Shown: positions 1-15,167, counted from the stretch's first letter. The stretch is DNA of 25,775 nucleotides from a virus (IMGVR_UViG_2609459795_000007:1-25775), one strand, 5' to 3'. Notes: generated from the letters alone by a model not told the origin. Made by a program: numbers and translations.

Positions 1-1056
1 TTATGACGGGGTAATGCCAACCGCTGCCGCCACTTTGTCGCCACTTGGCAGCGTTGCCAGAGGATTGAAACGGAGCGCCGTTTCCAGATGATCCGGTGCC
101 AGATGTGCGTAACGCATAGTCATTTTTATATCGTGGTGTCCGAGAATTTTTTGTAAGGCCAGAATGTTTCCACCCGACATCATGAAGTGCGCCGCAAACG
201 TATGGCGCAGAACGTGTGTGAGTTGACCGCGAGGGAGCACGATAGACGTTTTTTCCATCACGGATAAAAATTGAAAATAGCAGTCTGTGAAGAAATTGAA
301 TCCATCAAGCGCCATGATCTCTTCATAAAGCTCTTTACTGATAGGGATGCTTCTGTTTTTCTTCCCCTTCGTTCTTACAAAGGTAATTCGGTATTTAGTC
401 ACCTGTGATCGGGTAAGGTTTATTGCTTCTCGCCAGCGTGCGCCTGTGTTTAAGCATATCTTGACTACCAGCGCCAGAATTGGGTCCTGACGTTTGCAAT
501 CAGCCAGCAGTTCAACAATCTGCTCATGGGTAAGCCATGCCATCTCTTTTTCTGCGATGGTGAATTTTCGCATGTTCTCCAGTGGGTTTGGATACGACCA
601 TTCGCCCAGGCGGGATAGTTCGCTAAAAACACTACTTAGATAGCTTTGCTCCAGGTTAATGGTGACCGGGCTGGCTCCTTTCTTCCATTTCTCGCTGAAG
701 TAGATCTCACCGGTCAGGCGTTTATCTCGATAGTGGGCAAACATTTTAGAGGTGAGATTGGTTGCAAGAGGATTGCCTAGAGCGTCAACCATCAGCAGCA
801 ATTTGTCATAGACATGCTGCCCAGCAGTCAGAGATTTACCATGTAATTTGAACCATAGCTCAACCACGTCTTTCAGGGTTCGACGATCCACTGATTCGCC
901 CAGCCAGGGCTTTGATTCGGTTTCTTCCATCGTGTGACGCTCAAAAGCCAGAGCTTCGCCTTTGGTGGCGAATTGTTTACGCACACGACGCCCACTTCGT
1001 CCGGCGGGGTAACATTCGCAAAGCCATTTCCCTGTGGTGAGTTTTCGTACTGCCAT
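1..1056 (-). CDS. int: Phage integrase, tyrosine recombinase (P2/186 type); stop codon at bases 1-3, so the att site/prophage boundary lies just left of the window
   Basis: 351-aa ORF; C-terminal catalytic region with conserved ...HVLRHTFAAHF...HHDIKMTMRYAHL... (His/Arg/Tyr of tyrosine recombinases); position next to repressor as in P2/186. Confidence 0.9.
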   Translation of the reverse strand: MAVRKLTTGKWLCECYPAGRSGRRVRKQFATKGEALAFERHTMEETESKPWLGESVDRRTLKDVVELWFKLHGKSLTAGQHVYDKLLLMVDALGNPLATNLTSKMFAHYRDKRLTGEIYFSEKWKKGASPVTINLEQSYLSSVFSELSRLGEWSYPNPLENMRKFTIAEKEMAWLTHEQIVELLADCKRQDPILALVVKICLNTGARWREAINLTRSQVTKYRITFVRTKGKKNRSIPISKELYEEIMALDGFNFFTDCYFQFLSVMEKTSIVLPRGQLTHVLRHTFAAHFMMSGGNILALQKILGHHDIKMTMRYAHLAPDHLETALRFNPLATLPSGDKVAAAVGITPS

Positions 1057-1126: not shown

Positions 1127-3115
1127 TTAAAAAACATTCTTATCCCCGTGGAAAAAACGTGCAACGTTCAATAGCCAGTCGGGGGTTTTTATTTCATTTG
1201 AATTTGCTAGTATTTCTAAATATTTTTCGCAAAATTCATTTTTTTTTCCTGGTAATTCGAAATAATCCTCAATAGCTTTTTTTTCTGTAATGTTAAGATT
1301 CAAAGCGCCTCCCGATACTGAAGACTCCATTAACTGTGGGGTTTCCATAAAGGACAAACTAGTTTCTCCTTTAGTGTAAAGCATTTTCAGAGTTTCTACG
1401 TAGAAATCAGCATTAAGAGACTGCTCAATTTCTGTAGGTGGATAAACTCGATCATCAGTAACTTTAACAAGGCTTATATTAGATAAGTCTTTATCGAGCA
1501 AGAGTCTTCTTATTTTTATACTTGGTATTGTATCTGTAGCATCATATGGACTATATTTGTGATCTGTATCTAATAATAATAATACTTTTCCTGAGATTGT
1601 TGCTTTGCGATCCTCTAACGCCATAACGAGTAAATTATATATTTTTTTTACTGTAGGGGAGCCACCGACGGATAAAACTATTAGTTTCTCAATGTTTTCA
1701 TAATCCAAGTGAGCGGAAATATATTTTCTATCAGTTTTTCCTTCGCACAATATCCAGTTATAATTATTTCCAGATGTTATTGAATAAACAATTGATTGTG
1801 CTAAGTCGTGATTGCTTTTCATTTCTAAAACGTCAAGGTAAGAGCCATTTGACTCTTTTGCTAGTTCCTTTAATTCATCCTTGTAGTTTTCCAGATCGAG
1901 TGCTTTGATGTATGTTTGAGAGGGGGAAATATATATGGCTGTACCTGAGCCTGTAACAGGTAAAAAACCATACCAATGAGTTGTACAAATAGTCTGTATG
2001 CCTAGGTCGCTAATTTTTTTTATTTTATCAAATTGATTAAAACATGATGTGGCATGTAAGGATAATTCAGGTTCATCAACAGCAAGAATTGTTGAGTGCT
2101 GAGATTTTTGTGGATTATGTTTTAAGAAATTGGTAGCAAGATCTAGCAATGCTTTTCTTTTTTCTCCTGAGCTTAAATTTTGCACAGGGGTCTCTTTATT
2201 AACATCATCAATATGATGTAATATTTTATCACTAAAATATGATTCAATTATTTTAGATATCATATGACGTTGAGTGAAACTATTTTGTCGCTGAGATGGT
2301 TTTTTAAATTGATATCGCCCCTCAAGCTTTGTAGTTAATTGTCTAATAAAATCATTTAAGTGCGAATTTATTGCTGTAATATCCTTTTTCTTAATGATTT
2401 TACTGATTTTTTGTTGGAGATTTTCACCTAATAAAGACTGTAATAAATCGCTTTCAATCCTTGAGTATTCGGATGTGGTTATTTCTGCAGGTAGGTAAAT
2501 ATAATTATAGATATCCTTAATTGTTATTAATAGCTTAGGTAGTATATTGTTAAATTGATATTTTTTATTATTCGTCGAACTATTTTCATTTGCGAGATCA
2601 TCAATTTGCAATCGATAATCATCTATAGATTCGAAAATTGACATGTAGGGGCGAGGAATATCATTTGCAGTTTCTTTTATTATCCCAAGGGGAATTAATA
2701 AATATTCATCTGAAGAATATTTGTATTCTAGTTGCTTCCTGTGTGATATAAATTTCTCAGCTATAGGACGTTGCAATGTATTAAAAACATCACTTTCTAT
2801 TTGCCAAGTGATATCGCTTACGATTTCTAATGCTTTGTATAGGGAATTATTTATCTTTAGCTTGTTTTTATTTATTAAATAAATTGGCACAATGAATGGT
2901 TCTCGAGTATCGAAACCTTGACTGCGCGCTTCATTGTTGATATCAAGTCTATTGATATCAGTTTTATTTAGTACAATATCTAATGCTTGTAATATTGAGC
3001 TTTTCCCGACACCATTTTCACCAATGAGCCAAGAGGATTTATTGTTTAAAGTGAGAGGGATATAATGTTGATTTTTGAAATTCTTGAAATTTCGTAAAAT
3101 AACACCAATAATCAT
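1127..3115 (-). CDS. OLD-family ABC-type ATPase with C-terminal Toprim-like domain (P2 Old-like or fused PARIS AriA-AriB-like candidate defence nuclease)
   Basis: 662-aa ORF; N-terminal Walker A GENGVGKSS; signature-like LSSGEKR; Walker B ILAVDEPELSLH; C-terminal ILCEGKTD ... LLLDTD resembling Toprim acidic motifs; strongly AT-rich relative to flanking genes. Confidence 0.7.
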   Translation of the reverse strand: MIIGVILRNFKNFKNQHYIPLTLNNKSSWLIGENGVGKSSILQALDIVLNKTDINRLDINNEARSQGFDTREPFIVPIYLINKNKLKINNSLYKALEIVSDITWQIESDVFNTLQRPIAEKFISHRKQLEYKYSSDEYLLIPLGIIKETANDIPRPYMSIFESIDDYRLQIDDLANENSSTNNKKYQFNNILPKLLITIKDIYNYIYLPAEITTSEYSRIESDLLQSLLGENLQQKISKIIKKKDITAINSHLNDFIRQLTTKLEGRYQFKKPSQRQNSFTQRHMISKIIESYFSDKILHHIDDVNKETPVQNLSSGEKRKALLDLATNFLKHNPQKSQHSTILAVDEPELSLHATSCFNQFDKIKKISDLGIQTICTTHWYGFLPVTGSGTAIYISPSQTYIKALDLENYKDELKELAKESNGSYLDVLEMKSNHDLAQSIVYSITSGNNYNWILCEGKTDRKYISAHLDYENIEKLIVLSVGGSPTVKKIYNLLVMALEDRKATISGKVLLLLDTDHKYSPYDATDTIPSIKIRRLLLDKDLSNISLVKVTDDRVYPPTEIEQSLNADFYVETLKMLYTKGETSLSFMETPQLMESSVSGGALNLNITEKKAIEDYFELPGKKNEFCEKYLEILANSNEIKTPDWLLNVARFFHGDKNVF

Positions 3116-3191: not shown

Positions 3192-3725
3192 CTATTTTTT
3201 TGATTTTGACTCTAGCATTATGCGGTTATTAGGTAACCTCATTAATTCTCGAACAGAATATATACCGTCAATGGCAATCAACCATAACCCATCATCAATC
3301 TCATCCACACCTCGTCTCACGACATAAGTTATATGCTCATGCTCAAGAGCTGAGATATCTTTTAGGTCATTTGGCAATAGTGATAAATCAAAAATTAAAT
3401 AGCCATTATCAATCAGTTTGCCATCGATAATTTTCTCTCTGGTCAGGCTTACAACATGCGATTTTGCATCCACATACATGGGGCCTTCAGCTGCGGATAG
3501 CCAACGAAGTGAAATACCTGTTTCTAACGCACATTGAATTATCCAATCAGCGGGGAATGTATCTCTCATATATCGATTAGCTAACGTGCTTTTAGAAACA
3601 CCAAGATGTTCAGCCAAAGCCTGTCGTGTCGTAAAGCCATAAGCTTCGACTAATCGCTCAATCGCAGCCTTACCACCTTTATTGGGATTTATTTTGATCT
3701 CACTTGGGTACTTTGATGTTGACAT
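3192..3725 (-). CDS. cI: 186 CI-type immunity repressor (HTH N-terminal domain)
   Basis: 177-aa ORF; ...AYGFTTRQALAEHLGVSKSTLANRYMR... helix-turn-helix; divergent from the Apl/CII operon; its start codon overlaps the -35 of the rightward promoter. Confidence 0.8.
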   Translation of the reverse strand: MSTSKYPSEIKINPNKGGKAAIERLVEAYGFTTRQALAEHLGVSKSTLANRYMRDTFPADWIIQCALETGISLRWLSAAEGPMYVDAKSHVVSLTREKIIDGKLIDNGYLIFDLSLLPNDLKDISALEHEHITYVVRRGVDEIDDGLWLIAIDGIYSVRELMRLPNNRIMLESKSKK

Positions 3726-5875: not shown

Positions 5876-6729
5876 GCACCATCCTGAAATGGGCGGGAAA
5901 TAAAACCGCCGTAATGTCCGAACTGAAAAAACATCTTCCTGCTGGTCCGCGACTGGTTGAACCTTTCGCGGGTTCCTGTGCTGTGATGATGGAGACGGAT
6001 TATCCGTGCTATCTGGTTGCGGATATTAATCCTGATTTAATCAACCTCTATAAAAAGGTTGCCGCTGATTGTGAATCGTTTATATCTCGCGCCAAAGTTT
6101 TATTTGAGAACGCAAACAGGGAGGTGGCTTATTACAACATAAGGCAGGAGTTTAATTACTCAACTGAAATTACTGATTTCATGAAAGCGGTATATTTCCT
6201 GTATCTCAATCGTCACGGTTACCGTGGGTTATGTCGCTATAACAAGAGCGGGCATTTCAACATTCCCTACGGTAATTATAAAAATCCGTATTTCCCTGAA
6301 AAAGAAATTCGCGCATTTGCAGAGAAAGCCCAGCGAGCAACGTTTATCTGCGCCAGCTTTGATGAAACGCTGGCGATGCTGCAGGTGGGGGATGTGGTGT
6401 ATTGCGATCCGCCTTATGACGGTACGTTTTCCGGTTATCACACTGACGGCTTCACTGAAGATGACCAGTATCACCTGGCATCCGTTCTTGAACATCGGTC
6501 ATCAGAAGGACATCCCGTCATTGTTTCTAACAGTGACACATCCCTGATCCGTTCGCTGTATCGCAATTTTACTCACCACTACATCAAGGCAAAACGCAGC
6601 ATCGGTGTGGCAGCTGGTGATAGTAAATCTGCAACAGAAATCATTGCTGTTTCCGGGGCGCGCTGCTGGGTGGGATTTGATCCTTCGCGTGGCGTAGATA
6701 GTTCTGCTGTGTACGAGGTGCGTGTATGA
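5872..6729 (+). CDS. dam: DNA adenine methyltransferase (Dam family, alpha class)
   Basis: ATG 5872 ([11 protein letters not shown]...), GGAGGTG RBS; motif [13 protein letters not shown] close to E. coli Dam; motif IV DPPY (VYCDPPYDG); start overlaps upstream stop, stop overlaps A start. Confidence 0.85.
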
Positions 6730-9140
6730 GTCATGACGATATGAGCAACTCTAGCGGCTTTAACGAGGCCGCTGCATCATTTTCATGGAACGGCCCGAAA
6801 AAGGCCATTAACCCTTATCTGGACCCGGCGGAATTTGCGCCGGAGTCTGCACTTTCAAACCTGATCACTCTGTATGCTGCCGATAACGAGCAGGAACAAC
6901 TGCGCCGCGAGGCACTGAGTGAGCAGGTCTGGGAGCGTTATTTCTTTAATGAATCCCGTGATCCTGTCCAGCGCGAAATGGAGCAGGATAAGCTCATTAG
7001 CCGCGCAAAGCTTGCGCATGAGCAGCAGCTTTTTAACCCGGACATGGTCATTCTGGCAGATGTCAGCGCCCAGCCTACCCACATCAGCAAGCCGCTGATG
7101 CAACGTATCGAATACTTCAGCAGCCTGGGCAGGCCAAAGGCTTATTCCCGCTATTTGCGTGAGACGATTAAGCCATGTCTGGAGCGACTGGATTGTGTAC
7201 GCGACAGTCAGCTATCCGCTTCTTTCCGTTTTATGGCAAGCCATCAAGGGCTTGAGGGCCTGCTGATCCTGCCTGAAATGAGTCAGGATCAGGTAAAACG
7301 CCTGTCCACCCTAGTAGCTGCGCATATGAGCATGTGCCTTGATGCCGCTTGTGGCGATTTATATGCCACCGATGACGTTAAGCCAGAAGAAATCCGCAAG
7401 ACATGGGAAAAGGTGGCAGCGGAAACCCTGCGACTGGATGTTATCCCGCCTGCGTTTGAGCAACTCCGCCGGAAAAGAAACCGCCGCAAACCCGTGCCCT
7501 ATGAACTCATACCGGGTTCGCTGGCACGTATGCTTTGCGCCGACTGGTGGTATCGAAAATTGTGGAAGATGCGTTGCGAATGGCGGGAAGAGCAGTTGCG
7601 TGCTGTTTGCCTGGTCAGCAAAAAAGCATCTCCCTATGTCAGCTATGAAGCCGTGACGCATAAACGTGAGCAGCGCCGTAAGTCGCTGGAGTTTTTCCGT
7701 TCTCATGAACTGGTGAACGAAGACGGCGACACGCTGGATATGGAAGATGTGGTAAACGCCAGCAGCAGCAACCCGGCACATCGCCGCAATGAGATGATGG
7801 CCTGTGTTAAAGGTCTGGAGCTTATCGCAGAAATGCGTGGTGACTGCGCCGTTTTCTACACTATCACCTGTCCGTCACGTTTCCATTCCACGCTCAACAA
7901 CGGCAGACCCAACCCGACCTGGACAAATGCGACGGTAAGACAAAGCAGCGATTATCTGGTCGGCATGTTTGCTGCATTTCGTAAGGCTATGCACAAAGCC
8001 GGGTTGCGCTGGTATGGCGTGCGGGTGGCTGAGCCGCACCATGACGGTACTGTGCACTGGCATCTCATGTGTTTCATGCGCAAAAAAGACCGCCGCGCCA
8101 TTACTGCATTGTTGCGTAAGTTTGCCATCCGTGAAGACCGCGAGGAACTGGGTAATAACACTGGTCCACGCTTTAAATCTGAGCTGATAAACCCACGCAA
8201 AGGAACACCGACAAGCTACATCGCGAAATACATCAGTAAGAACATTGACGGGCGTGGTCTGGCTGGCGAGATCAGCAAGGAAACGGGTAAATCCCTGCGT
8301 GATAATGCTGAATACGTTAATGCCTGGGCGTCTCTGCATCGTGTTCAGCAATTCCGCTTCTTTGGCATTCCGGGGCGTCAGGCTTACCGTGAACTGCGAT
8401 TGCTGGCTGGTCAGGCGGCAAGGCAACAGGGGGACAAAAAAGCAGGTGCGCCGGTACTGGATAACCCGCGCCTTGATGCCATCCTGGCTGCTGCTGATGC
8501 TGGTTGTTTTGCCACCTACATCATGAAGCAGGGCGGCGTACTGGTTCCCCGCAAATATCACCTTATCAGAACAGCTTATGAAATTAACGAAGAGCCGACT
8601 GCTTATGGCGATCACGGTATTCGTATTTATGGCATCTGGTCACCCATTGTACAGGGCAAGATTTGCACTCATGCAGTGAAGTGGAAAATGGTTCGTAAGG
8701 CCGTTGACGTTCAGGAGGCGGCAGCCGACCAGGGCGCTTGCGCCCCTTGGACTCGTGGCAATAACTGTCCCCTTGCTGAAAATTTGAACCAACAAGGGAA
8801 AGACAAATCAGCTGATGGGGACTCCAGAACGGATATTACCCGTATGAATGACAAGGAGTTGCACAATTACCTGCACAGTATGAGCAAAAAAGAGCGCCGG
8901 GAACTGGCTGCAAGGTTACGCCAGGTGAAACCGAAACGGCGTAAAGACTACAAACAGCGAATTACAGACCATCAGCGACAGCAGCTCGTCTATGAACTGA
9001 AGTCCAGGGGATTTGATGGCAGCGAGAAAGAAGTCGATTTGCTCCTTCGCGGCGGCAGTATTCCGTCAGGAGCAGGCCTGCGTATCTTCTATCGGAACCA
9101 GCGTCTGAAGGAAGATGATAAGTGGCGGAACCTGTATTAA
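6726..9140 (+). CDS. A: Replication initiation endonuclease (P2 gpA family, rolling-circle HUH nickase)
   Basis: 804-aa ORF; HUH-like motif TVHWHLMCF and tyrosine motif [13 protein letters not shown] characteristic of P2 A; position before the cos-proximal region. Confidence 0.9.
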
Positions 9141-9232
9141 TTACGCGGGTTGACAATTCGTGCTCTTAATAATACCAGGCATATCAGGCCGATGAACGTA
9201 AAAAAACGTTTTACATCAGTAAGATTATTATA

Positions 9233-9252
9233 TACTGTAAATATAAACAGTG
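9233..9252 (+). promoter_or_regulatory. LexA operator (SOS box) upstream of the tum/dinI-like operon
   Basis: TACTGTAAATATAAACAGTG: CTGT-N8-ACAG core, 17/20 match to the consensus TACTGTATATATATACAGTA; 40 bp upstream of the ORF starting at 9293. Confidence 0.65.
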
Positions 9253-9292
9253 GTTATGTATACAGTATTGTTTTGGTGTCATAGGAGGAAAG

Positions 9293-9481
9293 ATGCAGGA
9301 CTATTTTTTGGAGTCTTTGAAGCTCCAGCGCATTGATTTTTTTCTTAAGCTTGTAGCGGCTAGTGAGTGTAGTGATGAAGAGAAGGGGCTGGCTCTGCAG
9401 TGGGTTTCTGAATTGACTGATGAACTCATGGCAAAAATCAGAAGCCACGAATACAACCGCTCAATGGATGTCATCAGCTGA
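9293..9481 (+). CDS. Small SOS-controlled protein, possible Tum antirepressor N-terminal-domain equivalent
   Basis: 62-aa ORF with strong RBS (ATAGGAGGAAAG-ATG); immediately downstream of the LexA box and upstream of the DinI-like ORF. Confidence 0.5.
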   Translation: MQDYFLESLKLQRIDFFLKLVAASECSDEEKGLALQWVSELTDELMAKIRSHEYNRSMDVIS

Positions 9482-9491
9482 GGTGACTTTT

Positions 9492-9725
9492 ATGCGCATT
9501 GAAATAATGATCGATAAAGAGCAGAAGATTAGCCAGTCTACCCTGGACGCCCTTGAATCCGAGCTTTACCGCAATCTGCGCCCCCTGTATCCCAAAACGG
9601 TAATTCGCATTCGCAAAGGTAGCTCTAACGGTGTGGAACTAACCGGACTGCAACTGGATGAAGAAAGAAAACAAGTGATGAAAATTATGCAGAAGGTGTG
9701 GGAGGACGACAGCTGGCTGCATTAA
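9492..9725 (+). CDS. DinI-family protein (DinI-like / Tum C-terminal-domain-like)
   Basis: 77-aa ORF MRIEIMIDKEQKISQSTLDALESELYRNL...VWEDDSWLH matches the DinI family pattern (MRIEV...WE..D.W); ATG 9492 after AGGTGA. Confidence 0.75.
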   Translation: MRIEIMIDKEQKISQSTLDALESELYRNLRPLYPKTVIRIRKGSSNGVELTGLQLDEERKQVMKIMQKVWEDDSWLH

Positions 9726-9917
9726 GAAATGTTGCCCCCAGGAGGATTCATTCTGATGGGGGCTAGTTTGGGCAATGAGTGAAATAAGGCGTAAGGTGGG
9801 CGGTTATTTTGATAAGTGATCGTCCGCTTTGTGTCAGAAGCAGAAGTGGGAGTGTCTGAGACTCTCTAAAAGTTGATGATTCACTTACAAAACCATTTTC
9901 CTGATGGATGCTTACAC

Positions 9918-10253
9918 TTACGAATGATCATTCTGTTTAGTCTTCATGAGAAAATCCCGAATCTTTGCCAAGTTTGAATTTTCGGGGATTGAATCCATGT
10001 ACGGATCACGCTCAAACACTAATTGCTCAGATTCAACGAAAGCCTGCCACTCTACTGGGTCTAGCTCAAATCCCATTGCTGTCATATCACTTTCATCTTC
10101 CCCCTCGATCCAGTGGACTAAATAAAACAATTCATCATCAGGAGAATCATCCTCACCATCAACAATATCAACATCGGTTACAGTGATACGTAGGGTGGGA
10201 TCGATTTTTGAGACATAAATTCCTAACTGTGGTATAGGGGGAATATTGTTCAT
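9918..10253 (-). CDS. Strongly acidic small protein of unknown function (candidate DNA-mimic/anti-defence or regulator)
   Basis: 111-aa ORF with AAAAGGAG RBS 6 nt before ATG; about 26 Asp/Glu versus about 7 Lys/Arg by hand count; AT-rich cargo region. Confidence 0.6.
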   Translation of the reverse strand: MNNIPPIPQLGIYVSKIDPTLRITVTDVDIVDGEDDSPDDELFYLVHWIEGEDESDMTAMGFELDPVEWQAFVESEQLVFERDPYMDSIPENSNLAKIRDFLMKTKQNDHS

Positions 10254-10632
10254 GGAAACTCCTTTTATTGGTGTTTGCTATTTGAATAAAAATACGCCAA
10301 ACAGAGTGTTAACTGTGAATATGGAAAGAATCGTTGTAAGTACCCCGCTTAGGTGTCCCATTCTATTTTAGAGGTTCTCGTGCATATGGATTATGTTATC
10401 TGAAAGTTAACTTCCGCTTCCCGTTCACAGCGAACATTCATCTTTGTAAACCCGTATGATCCGTTTTTCAAGTGGCCATTCAGATACGGATTTTCACTTC
10501 CTTGACAGTGCATGACTATGCTGCATGAAATCGCATGATCGATTGAGGATCGTCTTTGCTCAGATCCGCCAGAACTGGCGGGCTTTTGCTCATGTTATGC
10601 ATGTGCATGAAAACCACTGCATAAAGCGGGCA

Positions 10633-10651
10633 GGCGTGGCGGGGATACGAG
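10633..10651 (+). other. Candidate cos site (cohesive-end sequence) of P2/186 type
   Basis: GGCGTGGCGGGGATACGAG followed by GCGCGCGCTGA; the first 13 nt match the 186/P2 cohesive-end sequences as I recall them (GGCG[T/A]GGCGGGGAAAGCA[T/C]); position between gene A region and portal gene as expected. Confidence 0.35.
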
Positions 10652-10743
10652 CGCGCGCTGAACCAGATAGATATATAAATTAAAACAGTTGTTCGGATAA
10701 AGGATTCTTGATAGCTTGAGCTTTTTCCTAAAAGGATTTTCCA

Positions 10744-12303
10744 ATGTCTAAAAACGAAATATCTCAGTTAAGAGATGAACAAGTAGATAACTTGATCATT
10801 TTGTGTGATGAAGCTATGAGGGCTACGCCTGAAAATGTCAAGAGATTCATAGAACCCGCGCCTGGCGTTCTTGCTCAATCGAAAGCCAAGCAGCACAGTT
10901 TGATTTTTGGTAGAAGGGGCTCTGGTAAGTCCTCATTGTTGAGGAAGGTAGTTGCAGATCTAACAATAGATAGAAGACCAATTTCTTTTGTTGATATGGA
11001 GACATTTAAAGGTCATTCATACCCTGATGTCCTAATTAGTGTTCTTATTAAAAGCCTACAAGAATTCGAGGTTTGGTTAGAAACTGCTGCATTAACCCCA
11101 GCTACTAAAACTACTTTTTGGAATCGAATTTTTGGTAGAGCGCCGGAAAGGAAACCTTTCAAAAAAAATCCTACAAATGAGCTTGTCCGTGAGCTCAAAG
11201 GCATCATTCAAGATTTAGAAAATAAACTTTTGCAGCCAGAAGAAATTAATGTGCAAAGAAAGGAAACTTCCACAAGAAGTTTTGAAGCTTCTGGTAATGC
11301 TTCCTTGAAGCAAGGTCCAGTAGATGTAGGAGTGGGAGTTAAAAAAGGAAATACAGGTACCAAAGAAATTAGTGAAGGATATAAATCATTAAAAACTGAA
11401 TACTTACATCAAAATATACTTAAGTTTCAAAGGTTTTTTAACAAACTTTCCGAATTGTCTGAAGGGCCGGCATATTTAATACTTGATGATCTATATCATA
11501 TTAGAAGAAGTGATCAGGCTAAAGTTATTGATTATTTTCATAGGGTTGCCAAAGGAAATGGTTTGTGGTTGAAAATTGGTACTATCAAGCATAGAAGTGA
11601 ATGGTATATTCATACAGATCCTCCTACTGGTGTTAAACTTGGTGATGATGCAAAAGAAATAAATATAGATATTTCTTTGGAAAAATTTGCAACTTTAAAA
11701 CAGTTTATGCAAAAAATACTCACTAATCTAATGGTAGAAACGCCGCCTATCACAGTAAATGGACTATTAAATACGACTGCAGTAGATAGGTTGATTATTG
11801 CTTCGGGTGGTGTTACTAGGGACTTTATTGGGATATTTACTAAAGCTATTAACCATGCGAGAGAAAGAGGGCCAGATCATCCTAGAGGTCCTCGAATTGG
11901 TGCAGAAGATGTGAATCTTGCTACTGGTGAATATGGTGATATCAAGCGTGAAGAATTTAAATTAGATGCTGATGATGATCGTATTGCCTTGGAGGAAGCA
12001 TTCACAAAACTTGTGGCATTTTGTTTGAATGATGCAAAATGTAATATTTTTCTAATTAATCAAAAAATGACTGGCCCTGTCAAGGATGCTATTAACCAGT
12101 TAATTGATTTAAGATTAGTGCATTTAGTCCAGTCTCGGGTCACTTTGAAGAAAGGTGCTGATGGCTTAGTTTTTGAGGCATATATGCTGGATACTAGTCA
12201 ATATACAGCATCTAGAAAAGTTCGAGATCTTAATTTGATTGACTTGAATTCCAAGACATTTAGTGAAGAGATACGTAAGAAAAAACTTCTCTATGAAGGT
12301 TGA
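10744..12303 (+). CDS. Orphan P-loop NTPase (AAA+/STAND-like), candidate single-gene defence protein
   Basis: 519-aa ORF, AAGGA RBS; Walker A GRRGSGKSS (aa 57-65); Walker B-like YLILDDLYH about 190 aa downstream; AT-rich; located between cos-like site and portal gene. Confidence 0.75.
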   Translation: MSKNEISQLRDEQVDNLIILCDEAMRATPENVKRFIEPAPGVLAQSKAKQHSLIFGRRGSGKSSLLRKVVADLTIDRRPISFVDMETFKGHSYPDVLISVLIKSLQEFEVWLETAALTPATKTTFWNRIFGRAPERKPFKKNPTNELVRELKGIIQDLENKLLQPEEINVQRKETSTRSFEASGNASLKQGPVDVGVGVKKGNTGTKEISEGYKSLKTEYLHQNILKFQRFFNKLSELSEGPAYLILDDLYHIRRSDQAKVIDYFHRVAKGNGLWLKIGTIKHRSEWYIHTDPPTGVKLGDDAKEINIDISLEKFATLKQFMQKILTNLMVETPPITVNGLLNTTAVDRLIIASGGVTRDFIGIFTKAINHARERGPDHPRGPRIGAEDVNLATGEYGDIKREEFKLDADDDRIALEEAFTKLVAFCLNDAKCNIFLINQKMTGPVKDAINQLIDLRLVHLVQSRVTLKKGADGLVFEAYMLDTSQYTASRKVRDLNLIDLNSKTFSEEIRKKKLLYEG

Positions 12304-12313
12304 GATAATTAGA

Positions 12314-12333
12314 AGAGGCGCTCTAGCGCCTCT
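12314..12333. terminator. Bidirectional intrinsic terminator-like hairpin between the convergent NTPase and portal genes
   Basis: Perfect 8-bp stem agaggcgc/gcgcctct with 4-nt loop tcta; T/A-rich flanks on both sides. Confidence 0.5.
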
Positions 12334-12375
12334 TTAGATTACTAATGTTTTATGGTTATTTTAATTTTAAGGTGA

Positions 12376-13401
12376 CTATAAAACATAATCTTTAAAGCGA
12401 ACTATTTCATCACTTACCCATGTGTTTACCTCCTCAAGCCTTTTTTGTAAAGGAATAAGTTCATTACGAACAAAGACCAAGCTCGCTTTTTCCACATCCC
12501 CAAAACCCCCAACATTATTTGGCATTATCCCCATCATCTGAGGCGGTACGCGGTGCGCAGCCATCATGTCATCGCGGCTGACATTTTTGATATTCAGAAA
12601 CTCATCCTTCGCCGCGACCTCTGACAACGGGATAATCTGAAGCCCGTCCTTTTTGCCGTTAGGTGAGTACATAAACAGGTTGCGGAAGTTACCCGGTCCT
12701 TTGGCACTTTTCATCGCGTTGCGGAGGTTGTTCACGTCCTCCTGGTTCTGCGCGGCATCGGTCATGTACATGATGAAGCCTGCGTGACTGCCGTTAATGT
12801 AATACTTGCGACGGAACAGCGTGGCGGACTCATTGAGCAGGGCTGACGGAATAGCAGAAAGATAACCGGGCAGGCCGTAGATCTCCTGGTTGATGTCCGG
12901 TTCCATCAGATGAAAGATGCTGCCTTTCGTGAACTGATATGGCTGCGTGGTCATACCGTATTGCACAAACCAGTAGGTATCCAGGTCTAACCCGCGTCGG
13001 GTGTATTTTGCCAAGGCAGATTCAAGGGCGATAACTTCACCGAAGCGGTTCGTGCGTTTCTCCAGGTAGGCGTTACCAAATACCAGATAGTCCTGCACAA
13101 AACGCGAAAAAGCCTGCTGGCTGAGCAGCGGGTGAGGGATGTAGGTGCTGGTCAGAATGTTGCACTTTACTGCAATCGGGGAACTATGATGAACGGCAGC
13201 GCGGAAGGTGCGCGCCAGTCCGTCAAAGCTGACGGGCGGCTCATACCAGCGGTCCATCTGTACGCATTCCACATAATCCAGCAGTTCTCGGCGGTCCAGA
13301 ACAGGAACGGGATCGCCGAAGCTGAATGCTTCGGCTGTAGTTTGACTTTTAAGCTGGATCTGTTTCGTCGCCGCAGCGCGGTTCTTCTTACTCTTTCCCA
13401 T
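12376..13401 (-). CDS. Q: Portal protein (P2 gpQ family)
   Basis: 341-aa ORF from ATG (complement of 13399-13401) overlapping the terminase stop (ATGA); size and order Q-P divergent from O as in P2. Confidence 0.85.
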   Translation of the reverse strand: MGKSKKNRAAATKQIQLKSQTTAEAFSFGDPVPVLDRRELLDYVECVQMDRWYEPPVSFDGLARTFRAAVHHSSPIAVKCNILTSTYIPHPLLSQQAFSRFVQDYLVFGNAYLEKRTNRFGEVIALESALAKYTRRGLDLDTYWFVQYGMTTQPYQFTKGSIFHLMEPDINQEIYGLPGYLSAIPSALLNESATLFRRKYYINGSHAGFIMYMTDAAQNQEDVNNLRNAMKSAKGPGNFRNLFMYSPNGKKDGLQIIPLSEVAAKDEFLNIKNVSRDDMMAAHRVPPQMMGIMPNNVGGFGDVEKASLVFVRNELIPLQKRLEEVNTWVSDEIVRFKDYVL

Positions 13402-15167
13402 CAAAAAATCTCCACAATATTGCTGGTATTGGCGGATTCGCCCTGCAGCGGTTCGTTAAACAGTGCGTGCATCGTTGCCCAGGCCAGATCGGCGTGGCTG
13501 GCTTCTTCGCTGCGGCTGGCTTCATAGGTCGGGCGGTTGCCACTGGCGGTGGTGGCGCGACGGATTGCCATAAAGGACTGCGCTATGTCGGTGTGTCCGG
13601 CGTCAAACTCCAGACGGCGGTGGCTGATAATGTCGTAGGCCTTGAGTACCAGGGCGTTTTTAACGTTGGGGTTGTAGACAAACTCCCGGACGGCAGGAAA
13701 AAACGCTTTCACGTTCTCGTAAACCCCGTGACCAACGCCGGTTGAGTCGATACCGATATAGGTCACGTTGTACTGTTCGGTCAGTTTTTTGATGGCGTCA
13801 GCCTGGGCGCGGAAGTCCATTCCGCGCCACTGGTGACGCTCAAGAATGCGGAACTTACCGCCCGGCACGGCTGGCGGCGCCACCACCACGCATCCGGCGC
13901 TGTCGCCGTTCTGCGTACCTTTCGCCGGGTCATATCCGATCCACACTTCGCGCCAGCCAAACGGGCGCAGGGCCAGTGCATGAAAGTCGGTCCAGACTTC
14001 CCAACTGTCCACCATGCACGCCTGCAGCTCGCTGAGTGGGAACACAGACGCGAGATCGTCCACGAACTCACACATCAGCAGGTTCTGGTATTCGTCCGGG
14101 CTGTACTCCATGCGCAACTGGTCGAGGTCGAACAGGTTACAGCCGCTGCGCACCGCATCTTCCACAGTGACTATCTGGCGGTACTGCCCGTCTGCGCACA
14201 GCAGGCCGGGGGCCAGATTGCTGTGGGACAGGTCGATGTCCACCTTATCGGCTTTGTTGCGCCCTCGGTTGAACAGCGCACCGGACCAGAACGGATAAGC
14301 ACTGTGTGTCAGGCTGGATGGCGTGGAAAAATAGGTTTGTCGCCATTTTTTGTGAATAGCCATACCGGAAGCCACTTTGCGCAGTTCTTGGAATTTCGGT
14401 ATCCAGAAATATTCATCCAGATACAGGTTGCCGTGGTAACTCTGGGCCGTGCGGGCATTGGTGCCGAGGAAGTACAGCGTGGCCCCGTTAGGAAGCACCA
14501 TCGGATCGCCTTTCAGCTCCACCTCCACTTCTTTGGCGAAGTCGATGATGTACTGCTTAAAGACGTGGGCCTGAGCCTTGCTGGCGGAAAGGAAAATCTG
14601 GTTACGCCCGGTTAGCAGGGCGTCAATCAGGGCTTCACGGGCAAAATAGAAGGTCGCGCCGATCTGGCGTGACTTCAGCAGGTTGCGGATGCGGTTGGTT
14701 TTTCCGGCTTCCCACCAGTGGCGCTGGTAGTTGAACATGGAGGAATGGAAGATTTCTTCCAGCTTCTCAATCTGTTCATCGGTGAAAACGTTCTTTTCCG
14801 GCTGACGGCGCGGGCCTTTGTTGCGGTTGGCGACGTTAGGGTTTAAGTCGGCTTCGTTGCCGCCATTGTTAAACTTGCCGATCCGCGCATGGCGCTCCGA
14901 CTGGCGCGCCAGCAGGTCAATCTCTTTGAAATCTTTCCCTTCTTTGTGCTCCTTCATAATGAGCTGGCAGTAGCGTGCGGCGGTGGTGAGCTGCATCTGA
15001 TCCAGCGGCCCATAGTCACCCCACTTGTCGCGTTTTTTCCAGCTGTGAACGGTTGCAACTTTCTCGCCCAGCATTTCAGCAATGCGGGCTACGCGGTATC
15101 CCTGAAAGTACAGCAGCATGGCCTGCCGACGGGGATCGAAATCTGCGGGTGTCAGTGTGGTGTTCAT
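13401..15167 (-). CDS. P: Terminase large subunit, ATPase (P2 gpP family)
   Basis: 588-aa ORF; size and position as P2 P; divergent from scaffold gene O. Confidence 0.85.
   Translation of the reverse strand: MNTTLTPADFDPRRQAMLLYFQGYRVARIAEMLGEKVATVHSWKKRDKWGDYGPLDQMQLTTAARYCQLIMKEHKEGKDFKEIDLLARQSERHARIGKFNNGGNEADLNPNVANRNKGPRRQPEKNVFTDEQIEKLEEIFHSSMFNYQRHWWEAGKTNRIRNLLKSRQIGATFYFAREALIDALLTGRNQIFLSASKAQAHVFKQYIIDFAKEVEVELKGDPMVLPNGATLYFLGTNARTAQSYHGNLYLDEYFWIPKFQELRKVASGMAIHKKWRQTYFSTPSSLTHSAYPFWSGALFNRGRNKADKVDIDLSHSNLAPGLLCADGQYRQIVTVEDAVRSGCNLFDLDQLRMEYSPDEYQNLLMCEFVDDLASVFPLSELQACMVDSWEVWTDFHALALRPFGWREVWIGYDPAKGTQNGDSAGCVVVAPPAVPGGKFRILERHQWRGMDFRAQADAIKKLTEQYNVTYIGIDSTGVGHGVYENVKAFFPAVREFVYNPNVKNALVLKAYDIISHRRLEFDAGHTDIAQSFMAIRRATTASGNRPTYEASRSEEASHADLAWATMHALFNEPLQGESANTSNIVEIF

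Follow-up and report, generated by a model that had tools for sequence, protein, structure and literature searches.

A strongly acidic DUF8087 protein encoded beside cos in 186/P2-like prophages: a mobile one-gene cassette and a tentative inhibitor of nucleic-acid-binding proteins

Introduction

The antirepressor CarS of Myxococcus xanthus is an SH3-like mimic of operator DNA, a five-stranded antiparallel fold with acidic residues lining its pocket, and works by occupying a DNA-recognition surface (PMC2926617). Mimicry by strongly acidic proteins of mobile elements is represented by Ocr (gp0.3) of phage T7 and by ArdA (PMC3439906, PMC2731889). The Ocr monomer has 116 aa and carries a large net negative charge. 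ArdA is longer, at about 165 aa, and genes of the Ocr and ArdA types are known from lytic phages and conjugative elements. In P2-like phages a hotspot of cargo genes lies between gpA and gpQ, beside cos (Rousset 2022, PMC9122126; Vassallo 2022, PMC9519451). The curated list of Rousset 2022 dropped arrangements made only of proteins shorter than 120 aa (PMC9122126).

Here we describe a 111-aa acidic protein, DUF8087 (PF26332), encoded in a viral contig of 25,775 nt (IMGVR_UViG_2609459795_000007:1-25775), the whole of which is referred to as the window. DUF8087 resembles Ocr and ArdA in its extreme excess of Asp and Glu, its carriage on mobile elements and its place near a genome end. It is similar in size to the Ocr monomer and shares the large net negative charge (-19, pI 4.05), which is conserved in 91 homologues. 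However, the folds of Ocr and ArdA are unrelated to the beta-barrel predicted for DUF8087, with no match in sequence or structure, and DUF8087, unlike ArdA, is predicted to be a single barrel plus one helix. Moreover, deposited phage genomes do not contain it, and only a single plasmid record among those searched does. CarS offers a working model: both proteins are small (about 86-111 aa), the predicted topology and acidic loops of DUF8087 would fit it, and the predicted fold has the five antiparallel strands of the SH3-like type, although neither homology between CarS and DUF8087 nor a cognate repressor partner was found. By location the comparison is with old and tin of P2, cargo of the gpA-gpQ interval; DUF8087 occupies the same locus by cos, likewise AT-rich and exchangeable, but Old and Tin show no homology to it. 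The hotspot systems that have been cloned and validated (PMC9122126, PMC9519451) are far larger than the 111-aa DUF8087. The protein is listed as 'hypothetical' (WP_001059831) in Table S5A of Rousset 2022 (PMC9122126), and its sequence is absent from the part of Table S5B covered here.

Results

An acidic gene in an AT-rich cargo region

The DUF8087 gene (9918..10253, minus strand) begins with ATG and encodes a cytoplasmic product with 15 Asp and 11 Glu against 4 Lys and 3 Arg. These totals of 26 acidic and 7 basic residues reproduce exactly the hand count of the first-pass annotation, and the two runs it had quoted, DGEDDSPDDE and EGEDESD, are both found in the protein. The pI is 4.05 and the net charge at pH 7 is -19.3. 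With an acidic fraction of 0.234 the protein stands at the top of the 45 window ORFs of at least 80 aa, the runner-up reaching 0.186. A ribosome-binding site, AAGGAG (10259..10264, minus strand), lies 5 nt 5' of the ATG, in keeping with the excellent site claimed for this ORF, and is kept in 6/6 aligned copies of the module. GC content near the gene is 0.38-0.42 versus 0.51-0.58 in the phage core and flanking phage genes, so the earlier description of an AT-rich cargo region holds. The divergent gap between the acidic gene and the ATPase ORF measures the 490 bp originally reported, and the cos-like sequence noticed within it is a true cos, cut at 10632/10633.

Comparison with homologues from five other genera and from Klebsiella-type prophages, down to ~68% identity, gave dN/dS values of 0.04-0.23. 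On these substitution patterns, 9918-10253 is a genuine conserved gene under purifying selection.

Identity and spread of the DUF8087 family

RefSeq lists the identical protein (100%) as WP_001059831.1, under the name "DUF8087 domain-containing protein". The PF26332 assignment comes from a precomputed match on a 98%-identical cluster representative and on 61/61 homologues; a direct hmmscan against a Pfam copy that does not hold the PF26332 model returned no family. The full length is covered by phrog_17127 of PHROG (E 2e-70), to which no function is assigned. NCBIfam gave no match, PADLOC-DB 2.0 gave 0 families at E <= 0.1, and the literature search found no paper describing DUF8087, PF26332 or WP_001059831. 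DUF8087 is already catalogued, as a DUF, and its locus is a well-known hotspot; the gene itself is no discovery.

The gene is present in 218/5426 complete E. coli genomes, and BL21(DE3), REL606 and E2348/69 are among the strains that carry the identical protein. The family is small, with 61 clusters at 90% identity in 5.8 billion proteins, and an exhaustive profile search of 1.84 billion representatives recovered 35 clusters. It was found in 4/185,579 species-representative genomes and in 34 IMG/VR viral contigs. A tblastn search of 50,697 deposited phage records did not find the gene, and among the plasmid records searched it occurred in one alone, a P2-like sequence. No homology of DUF8087 to a structural or regulatory phage protein was found.

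Distant members have 70-106 aa, and similarity to them is confined to the N-terminal ~80 residues. The family is marked by the motifs P-x-x-G-(L/I)-Y-V-S, (F/Y)-(F/Y)-L-V and E-L-D-P-x-E-W, in which P8, G11 and W69 are invariant, with E63 and the aliphatic and aromatic residues nearly so. In a set of 91 sequences, acidic residues make up a median fraction of 0.234 and the median pI is 4.05; even the least negative member has a charge of -6.5. Loop length differs between members while the Asp/Glu-rich composition of the loops is kept, so charge itself appears to be selected. Judged across these sequences, acidity is a property of the family, not tied to particular positions and not due to chance.

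Predicted structure

Two AlphaFold2 runs agreed with one another, reaching a pLDDT of 78 from 27 sequences and of 82 from 35 sequences; in the latter run all five models had a pLDDT of at least 75. The 111-aa protein is predicted to contain strands at residues 11-15, 22-31, 43-50, 60-64 and 78-82 and helices at 66-75, 84-87 (short) and 94-109 (C-terminal). The Asp/Glu-rich stretches form two predicted loops, residues 32-42 and 51-59. The predicted fold class is an SH3-like beta-barrel plus a C-terminal helix.

Foldseek searches of the model against the PDB and BFVD gave no match at E < 0.001, and a sequence-profile search of the PDB returned a chance match alone. Low scores generic to small barrels, at 8-13% identity, were obtained for DUF1653 (PDB 3be3), itself a family with no known function, FeoA, EF-P domain I and the CarD N-terminal domain, but these barrels do not have the acidic loops and C-terminal helix of DUF8087. 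The comparison with known DNA-mimic folds that the first-pass annotation had called for yielded no match in sequence or fold to Ocr, ArdA or another solved mimic.

Prophage setting and the cos boundary

The window is a 186/P2-like prophage. An integrase (1-1056, minus strand) and a 186-type CI repressor (3192-3725, minus strand) flank an OLD/AriA-like AAA_15 ATPase (1127-3115, minus strand), and replication gene A (gpA) lies at 6726-9140. It is followed by orf62 (62 aa) and a DinI-like gene (9293-9725, plus strand), which are convergent with the DUF8087 gene. Beyond DUF8087 are the cos region (10507..10659, plus strand), whose cohesive-end sequence opens with GGCGTGGCGGGG at 10633, and the portal gene Q (12376-13404, minus strand). 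The ~150-bp block at 10507-10659 is conserved in 45-86 P2-like phage records, and the linear record of Salmonella phage SEN8 has its right end at the equivalent of window position 10632. On the linear genome the right arm thus ends with the acidic gene, which lies 380 bp inside cos and is transcribed inwards.

DUF8087 lies between A and Q, adjoins cos and is exchangeable among similar prophages, as is characteristic of the gpA-gpQ hotspot. Its position and leftward orientation in the window are those of P2 old. In 26 IMG/VR contigs the right-arm stretch orf62-DinI-DUF8087-cos hardly varies, while identity in the portal gene is 84-95%, which makes cos the recombination joint. Read in this way, cos is a recombination boundary between a conserved right arm (gpA-orf62-DinI-DUF8087) and variable left-arm cargo. 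For other loci, Table S5A of Rousset 2022 lists a KAP NTPase or SieB between DinI and cos.

Some neighbouring genes have features of their own. The 62-aa ORF belongs to phrog_698, and the 77-aa DinI-like ORF, which starts 10 nt later, matches the C-terminal half alone of phrog_189 (positions 71-148 of 151). Together the pair presumably comes near the length of the Tum antirepressor of phage 186, and might represent an SOS module that is split or made of two parts. The AAA_15/AAA_21 ATPase at 1127-3115 has 662 aa and matches the PADLOC models for AriA (E 4e-23) and Old (E 2e-17); it occupies a third cargo slot of the prophage, equivalent to the slot of DUF8087 in Klebsiella-type P2-like prophages.

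The ATPase across cos

The slot between cos and the portal gene is filled by a 519-aa ORC/Cdc6-like P-loop ATPase (10744-12303, plus strand), with which the left arm of the packaged linear genome begins. It matches PF24389 (ORC-CDC6-like) at E 6.5e-10, falls below the cutoff for the Sll1717-family model NF047389 and has weak PADLOC matches (mad8, PtuA), with a GC content of 0.30-0.40. The protein is identical to WP_023150398.1 and is found at ~99% identity or more in the four E. coli genomes listed, with differing right-arm neighbours. On these grounds it is a candidate single-gene defence protein.

It had been suggested that the acidic protein is a partner or regulator of this ATPase. The suggestion does not survive, as cos separates the two genes and both occur together in only 1/5426 genomes, against 218 with the acidic gene. 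The single E. coli genome with the acidic gene, cos and the ATPase is that of strain 1008S19. The proposed check for co-occurrence revealed no tie, since the identical acidic gene has ten or more different cargos opposite it; they include retron Ec86 in BL21, DprA in E2348/69 and, elsewhere, retron Ec67, ParA with SIR2, and GmrSD. Likewise, the cos-to-portal distance takes at least ten values among the 26 IMG/VR contigs with the same right arm, representing five identified cargos and many unidentified ones. Elsewhere the ATPase is accompanied, in the slot of the acidic gene, by a 141-aa signal-peptide protein or by nothing (Table S5A, Rousset 2022). The gene contexts thus refute the link, and DUF8087 is independent of the ATPase. 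The 141-aa protein is WP_021561694.1, seen in the DinI-cos slot beside the same ATPase in E. coli CE0021a (locus L033, 2358-2783); its presence there shows the slot to accept unrelated morons transcribed leftward.

A cassette shared with islands and lysogeny operons

The DUF8087 gene travels in a 550-bp cassette (9882..10431, minus strand) comprising the gene with 35 bp of 3' and 178 bp of 5' sequence. The cassette is found at 85-88% nucleotide identity in islands of Serratia, Symbiopectobacterium, Lonsdalea and Proteus, and at ~89% in an integrative island present in 82 E. coli genomes. In Symbiopectobacterium it adjoins a VirB4-like gene, in an element with type IV secretion genes. Among its island neighbours are PD-T7-1 (E 1e-168), a DUF4365-TPR protein, an Mrr-like protein, a TmtA/MkoA-like helicase of 1589 aa and a PDC-M68A-like nuclease. 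The PD-T7-1 homologue, full length by PADLOC (E 1e-168), is encoded in Proteus hauseri (L007, 9265-10626), in a chromosomal island adjoining a PAAR/Sel1 gene cluster; it lies directly downstream of DUF8087 and a gene for a 127-aa protein.

The 127-aa protein has an N-terminal membrane segment (phrog_26730), and its gene lies ~200 bp downstream of DUF8087. Copies occur in Lonsdalea and Proteus, in the E. coli island and in three P2-like contigs; the window, Serratia and Symbiopectobacterium have none. The loci concerned are L006 8538-8921, L007 8538-8921, L010 7417-7800, and L057-L059 at about 5538. The protein has no match in Pfam or PADLOC and may be a partner of DUF8087 or a second moron.

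A different arrangement is found in Klebsiella-type and other P2-like prophages, where an HTH_3 repressor, a Flk_N-like gene, DUF8087 and the integrase follow one another on one strand with gaps of 10-24 nt. In the Klebsiella-type prophages the DUF8087 stop overlaps the integrase start codon by 4 nt. The Flk_N-like protein has about 210 aa and a C-terminal membrane anchor; it corresponds to phrog_5825, which is uncharacterised, and is weakly similar to Ant-type anti-repressors. The same order of repressor, Flk_N, DUF8087 and integrase surrounds a DUF8087 homologue of 42% identity. The position between Flk_N and the integrase is variable, being occupied by Abi_alpha/PDC-S47 in Dickeya and by an unrelated 126-aa gene in Yersinia; Flk_N was accordingly rejected as an obligate partner of DUF8087. 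This lysogeny operon with a variable slot was seen at L012-L016, L018, L030 and L031 (Klebsiella, Dickeya, Yersinia and other P2-like prophages), and a description of the position as a cargo slot was not found in the literature searched.

Distant DUF8087 homologues lie amid HigBA-like and BrnTA toxin-antitoxin pairs, and the HTH genes near them pair with HigB/Gp49-type toxins. Across the prophage, island and distant-homologue contexts no conserved partner gene was found. As for a tightly linked toxin of the kind expected in a type II toxin-antitoxin system, none is conserved; DUF8087 has no such neighbour, a Flk_N-like neighbour, or the 127-aa gene ~200 bp away. Nor does an HTH gene of the aca type adjoin DUF8087 in the window, as would be expected of an acr-aca pair. 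Taken together, these contexts firmly support DUF8087 as a free-standing mobile one-gene cassette in slots used elsewhere by defence or exclusion genes.

The region upstream of DUF8087

The ~180 nt 5' of DUF8087 are as conserved as its coding sequence, which suggests that recent transfer explains the upstream conservation. A structured 5' leader was rejected, with 0 compensatory pairs in six sequences, and Rfam gave no match in 9000-12500.

A hydrophobic 27-aa ORF (MGHLSGVLTTILSIFTVNTLFGVFLFK; 10278..10361, minus strand) is intact in six diverged copies. Its dN/dS ranges over 0.16-2.5, mostly 0.4-0.7, indicating little or no constraint. The end of this ORF and the spacer that follows align with the 3' end of the Flk_N-like gene (24 nt, AAAAGGAG, with the product ending in GAVLFK and a stop). 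The 27-aa ORF is therefore probably what is left of the C-terminal membrane anchor from a Flk_N-like protein, and probably not functional, and the cassette looks like a fragment cut from a Flk_N-DUF8087 operon. A type-I-toxin-like peptide, which had also been considered, was rejected because the ORF is unconstrained and homologous to the end of the Flk_N-like gene.

Promoter scans upstream of the gene in the window revealed no good sigma-70 site, the best being TTCACA-19-TATTTT. A LexA box was likewise rejected, the sole ACAG...CTGT motif, as read from the sequence, being wrongly oriented. Lastly, 85 nt at 10334-10418 show a ~79% match to unannotated intergenic DNA of 16 large conjugative plasmids from Klebsiella, Citrobacter, Raoultella and E. 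coli, one record of which is IncFIB/IncHI1B. At one of these plasmid loci (L069) nothing informative was found nearby.

Discussion

We tentatively read DUF8087 as an inhibitor of a basic nucleic-acid-binding protein, with a leaning towards anti-defence; the reading is possible and is the one we prefer. DUF8087 is an accessory ('moron') cassette in cargo slots of P2/186-like prophages and of integrative islands of the Enterobacterales, with no obligate partner gene and with a product presumably expressed from the prophage. As a small cytoplasmic SH3-like barrel it would display two Asp/Glu-rich loops round a conserved core of P8, G11, Y13, W69 and E63, and it would act as a stoichiometric inhibitor, occupying the basic nucleic-acid-binding surface of its target by mimicking the charge of nucleic acid. 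A defence nuclease or DNA-binding protein of the host or of a rival element would be slightly favoured as target over a protein of a superinfecting phage.

The extreme acidity of the whole family, its small, Ocr-like size and its constant place in slots for defence and counter-defence cargo all point this way. Such a protein has 70-110 aa, no catalytic domain, an aromatic and hydrophobic core and acidic loops, and so a stoichiometric binder of a basic surface would fit it best. CarS, an acidic SH3-like mimic of operator DNA, provides the precedent (PMC2926617). Moreover, anti-defence genes co-locate with defence genes on mobile elements, and DUF8087 adjoins PD-T7-1, the DUF4365-TPR protein, the TmtA/MkoA-like helicase and the PDC-M68A-like nuclease. 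However, high acidity alone is weak evidence for mimicry, and there is no likeness in sequence or fold to Ocr, ArdA or any other solved mimic; nothing links DUF8087 to the known mimic families. The absence from 50,697 phage genomes, with one P2-like plasmid record alone, argues against anti-defence, as does the place of the Klebsiella-type copies inside a repressor-integrase operon, which is a pattern of exclusion and defence genes and points to expression in the lysogen. The window also offers no convincing upstream promoter.

These positions would suit genes expressed by a resident prophage, and they fit exclusion or defence equally well. DUF8087 could instead be an exclusion or defence factor in its own right, a decoy, made in the lysogen and acting alone, that ties up a basic protein essential to a superinfecting phage. 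We regard this as somewhat unlikely, and the same doubt attaches to the targets one might name, a DNA-binding, recombination or packaging protein of that phage. The gene lies inside the gpA-gpQ hotspot of Rousset 2022. Its position and orientation, presumably those of P2 old, would favour exclusion, and so would the Klebsiella-type operon, in which a transcript running between repressor/Flk_N and integrase is expected in lysogens. The same slot in Dickeya holds Abi_alpha/PDC-S47, DUF8087 neighbours validated defence genes, and it is found only in integrated elements and never in the deposited phage genomes (50,697 searched). However, it is unusual for a defence protein that acts alone to have just 70-110 aa and no effector domain, PADLOC has no model for DUF8087, and acidity this extreme is more typical of inhibitors of host nucleases. 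In addition, Rousset 2022 discarded arrangements made only of proteins below 120 aa. A function other than inhibition, exclusion, immunity to a toxin, regulation or partnership with the ATPase is unlikely, but it has to be allowed for.

There is a small chance that DUF8087 is an orphan antitoxin or immunity protein, with an acidic barrel that neutralises a toxin of the basic or membrane type; in the window, where the gene stands alone, its product would guard against a relative of that toxin, encoded at another site or brought in by competitors. Small membrane proteins do recur as neighbours, both the Flk_N-like protein with its C-terminal anchor and the 127-aa protein with its N-terminal membrane segment, and distant homologues sit in islands rich in toxin-antitoxin pairs (HigBA-like and BrnTA). 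However, no partner is conserved and most E. coli prophage copies are solo. The slot between Flk_N and the integrase takes unrelated occupants, the 127-aa gene is separated by a gap of ~200 bp, and the upstream 27-aa hydrophobic ORF is unconstrained.

We consider it very improbable that DUF8087 regulates lysogeny or induction, whether as a CarS-like antirepressor or as a modulator of a DinI/Tum-type SOS module or of the integrase. CarS is a precedent of an acidic SH3-like antirepressor, the gene is convergent with the orf62-DinI-like pair, and other prophages place it between repressor and integrase with the 4-nt overlap with the integrase start codon. Set against this, the same cassette occurs in non-phage islands and in the type IV secretion element with no phage repressor or integrase beside it, two unrelated repressor types are involved (186 CI in the window versus HTH_3 in Klebsiella), and the variable slots can do without DUF8087, which would not be expected of a core regulator. 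A partnership with the ORC/Cdc6-like ATPase can be dismissed, as adjacency and divergent orientation in the window and one other genome are all that favour it, against the intervening cos, joint presence in 1/5426 genomes, at least ten alternative cargos and an ATPase that keeps company with other slot occupants.

Returning to the inhibitor reading, we would put forward with considerable doubt the broader proposal that DUF8087 founds a new family of SH3-fold, charge-mimicking inhibitors, which P2/186-like prophages and defence islands would deploy as a one-gene cassette against a defence system or against a DNA-binding protein of a rival phage. Should no phenotype appear, DUF8087 would be one more DUF in a known hotspot. 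The gene is unusually easy to test because BL21, REL606 and E2348/69 carry it natively.

The gpA-gpQ hotspot is a well-mined source of defence genes, and DUF8087 is among the small occupants that the curated catalogue overlooked. It is conserved, mobile across genera and always found in cargo slots related to conflict. Should it prove to be an inhibitor, the few known nucleic-acid mimics would gain a new fold, and its target would be identified as well. Moreover, as an identical copy is carried by BL21(DE3), REL606 and E2348/69, these widely used laboratory and reference strains would, if that reading is true, already be making an uncharacterised modulator of immunity.
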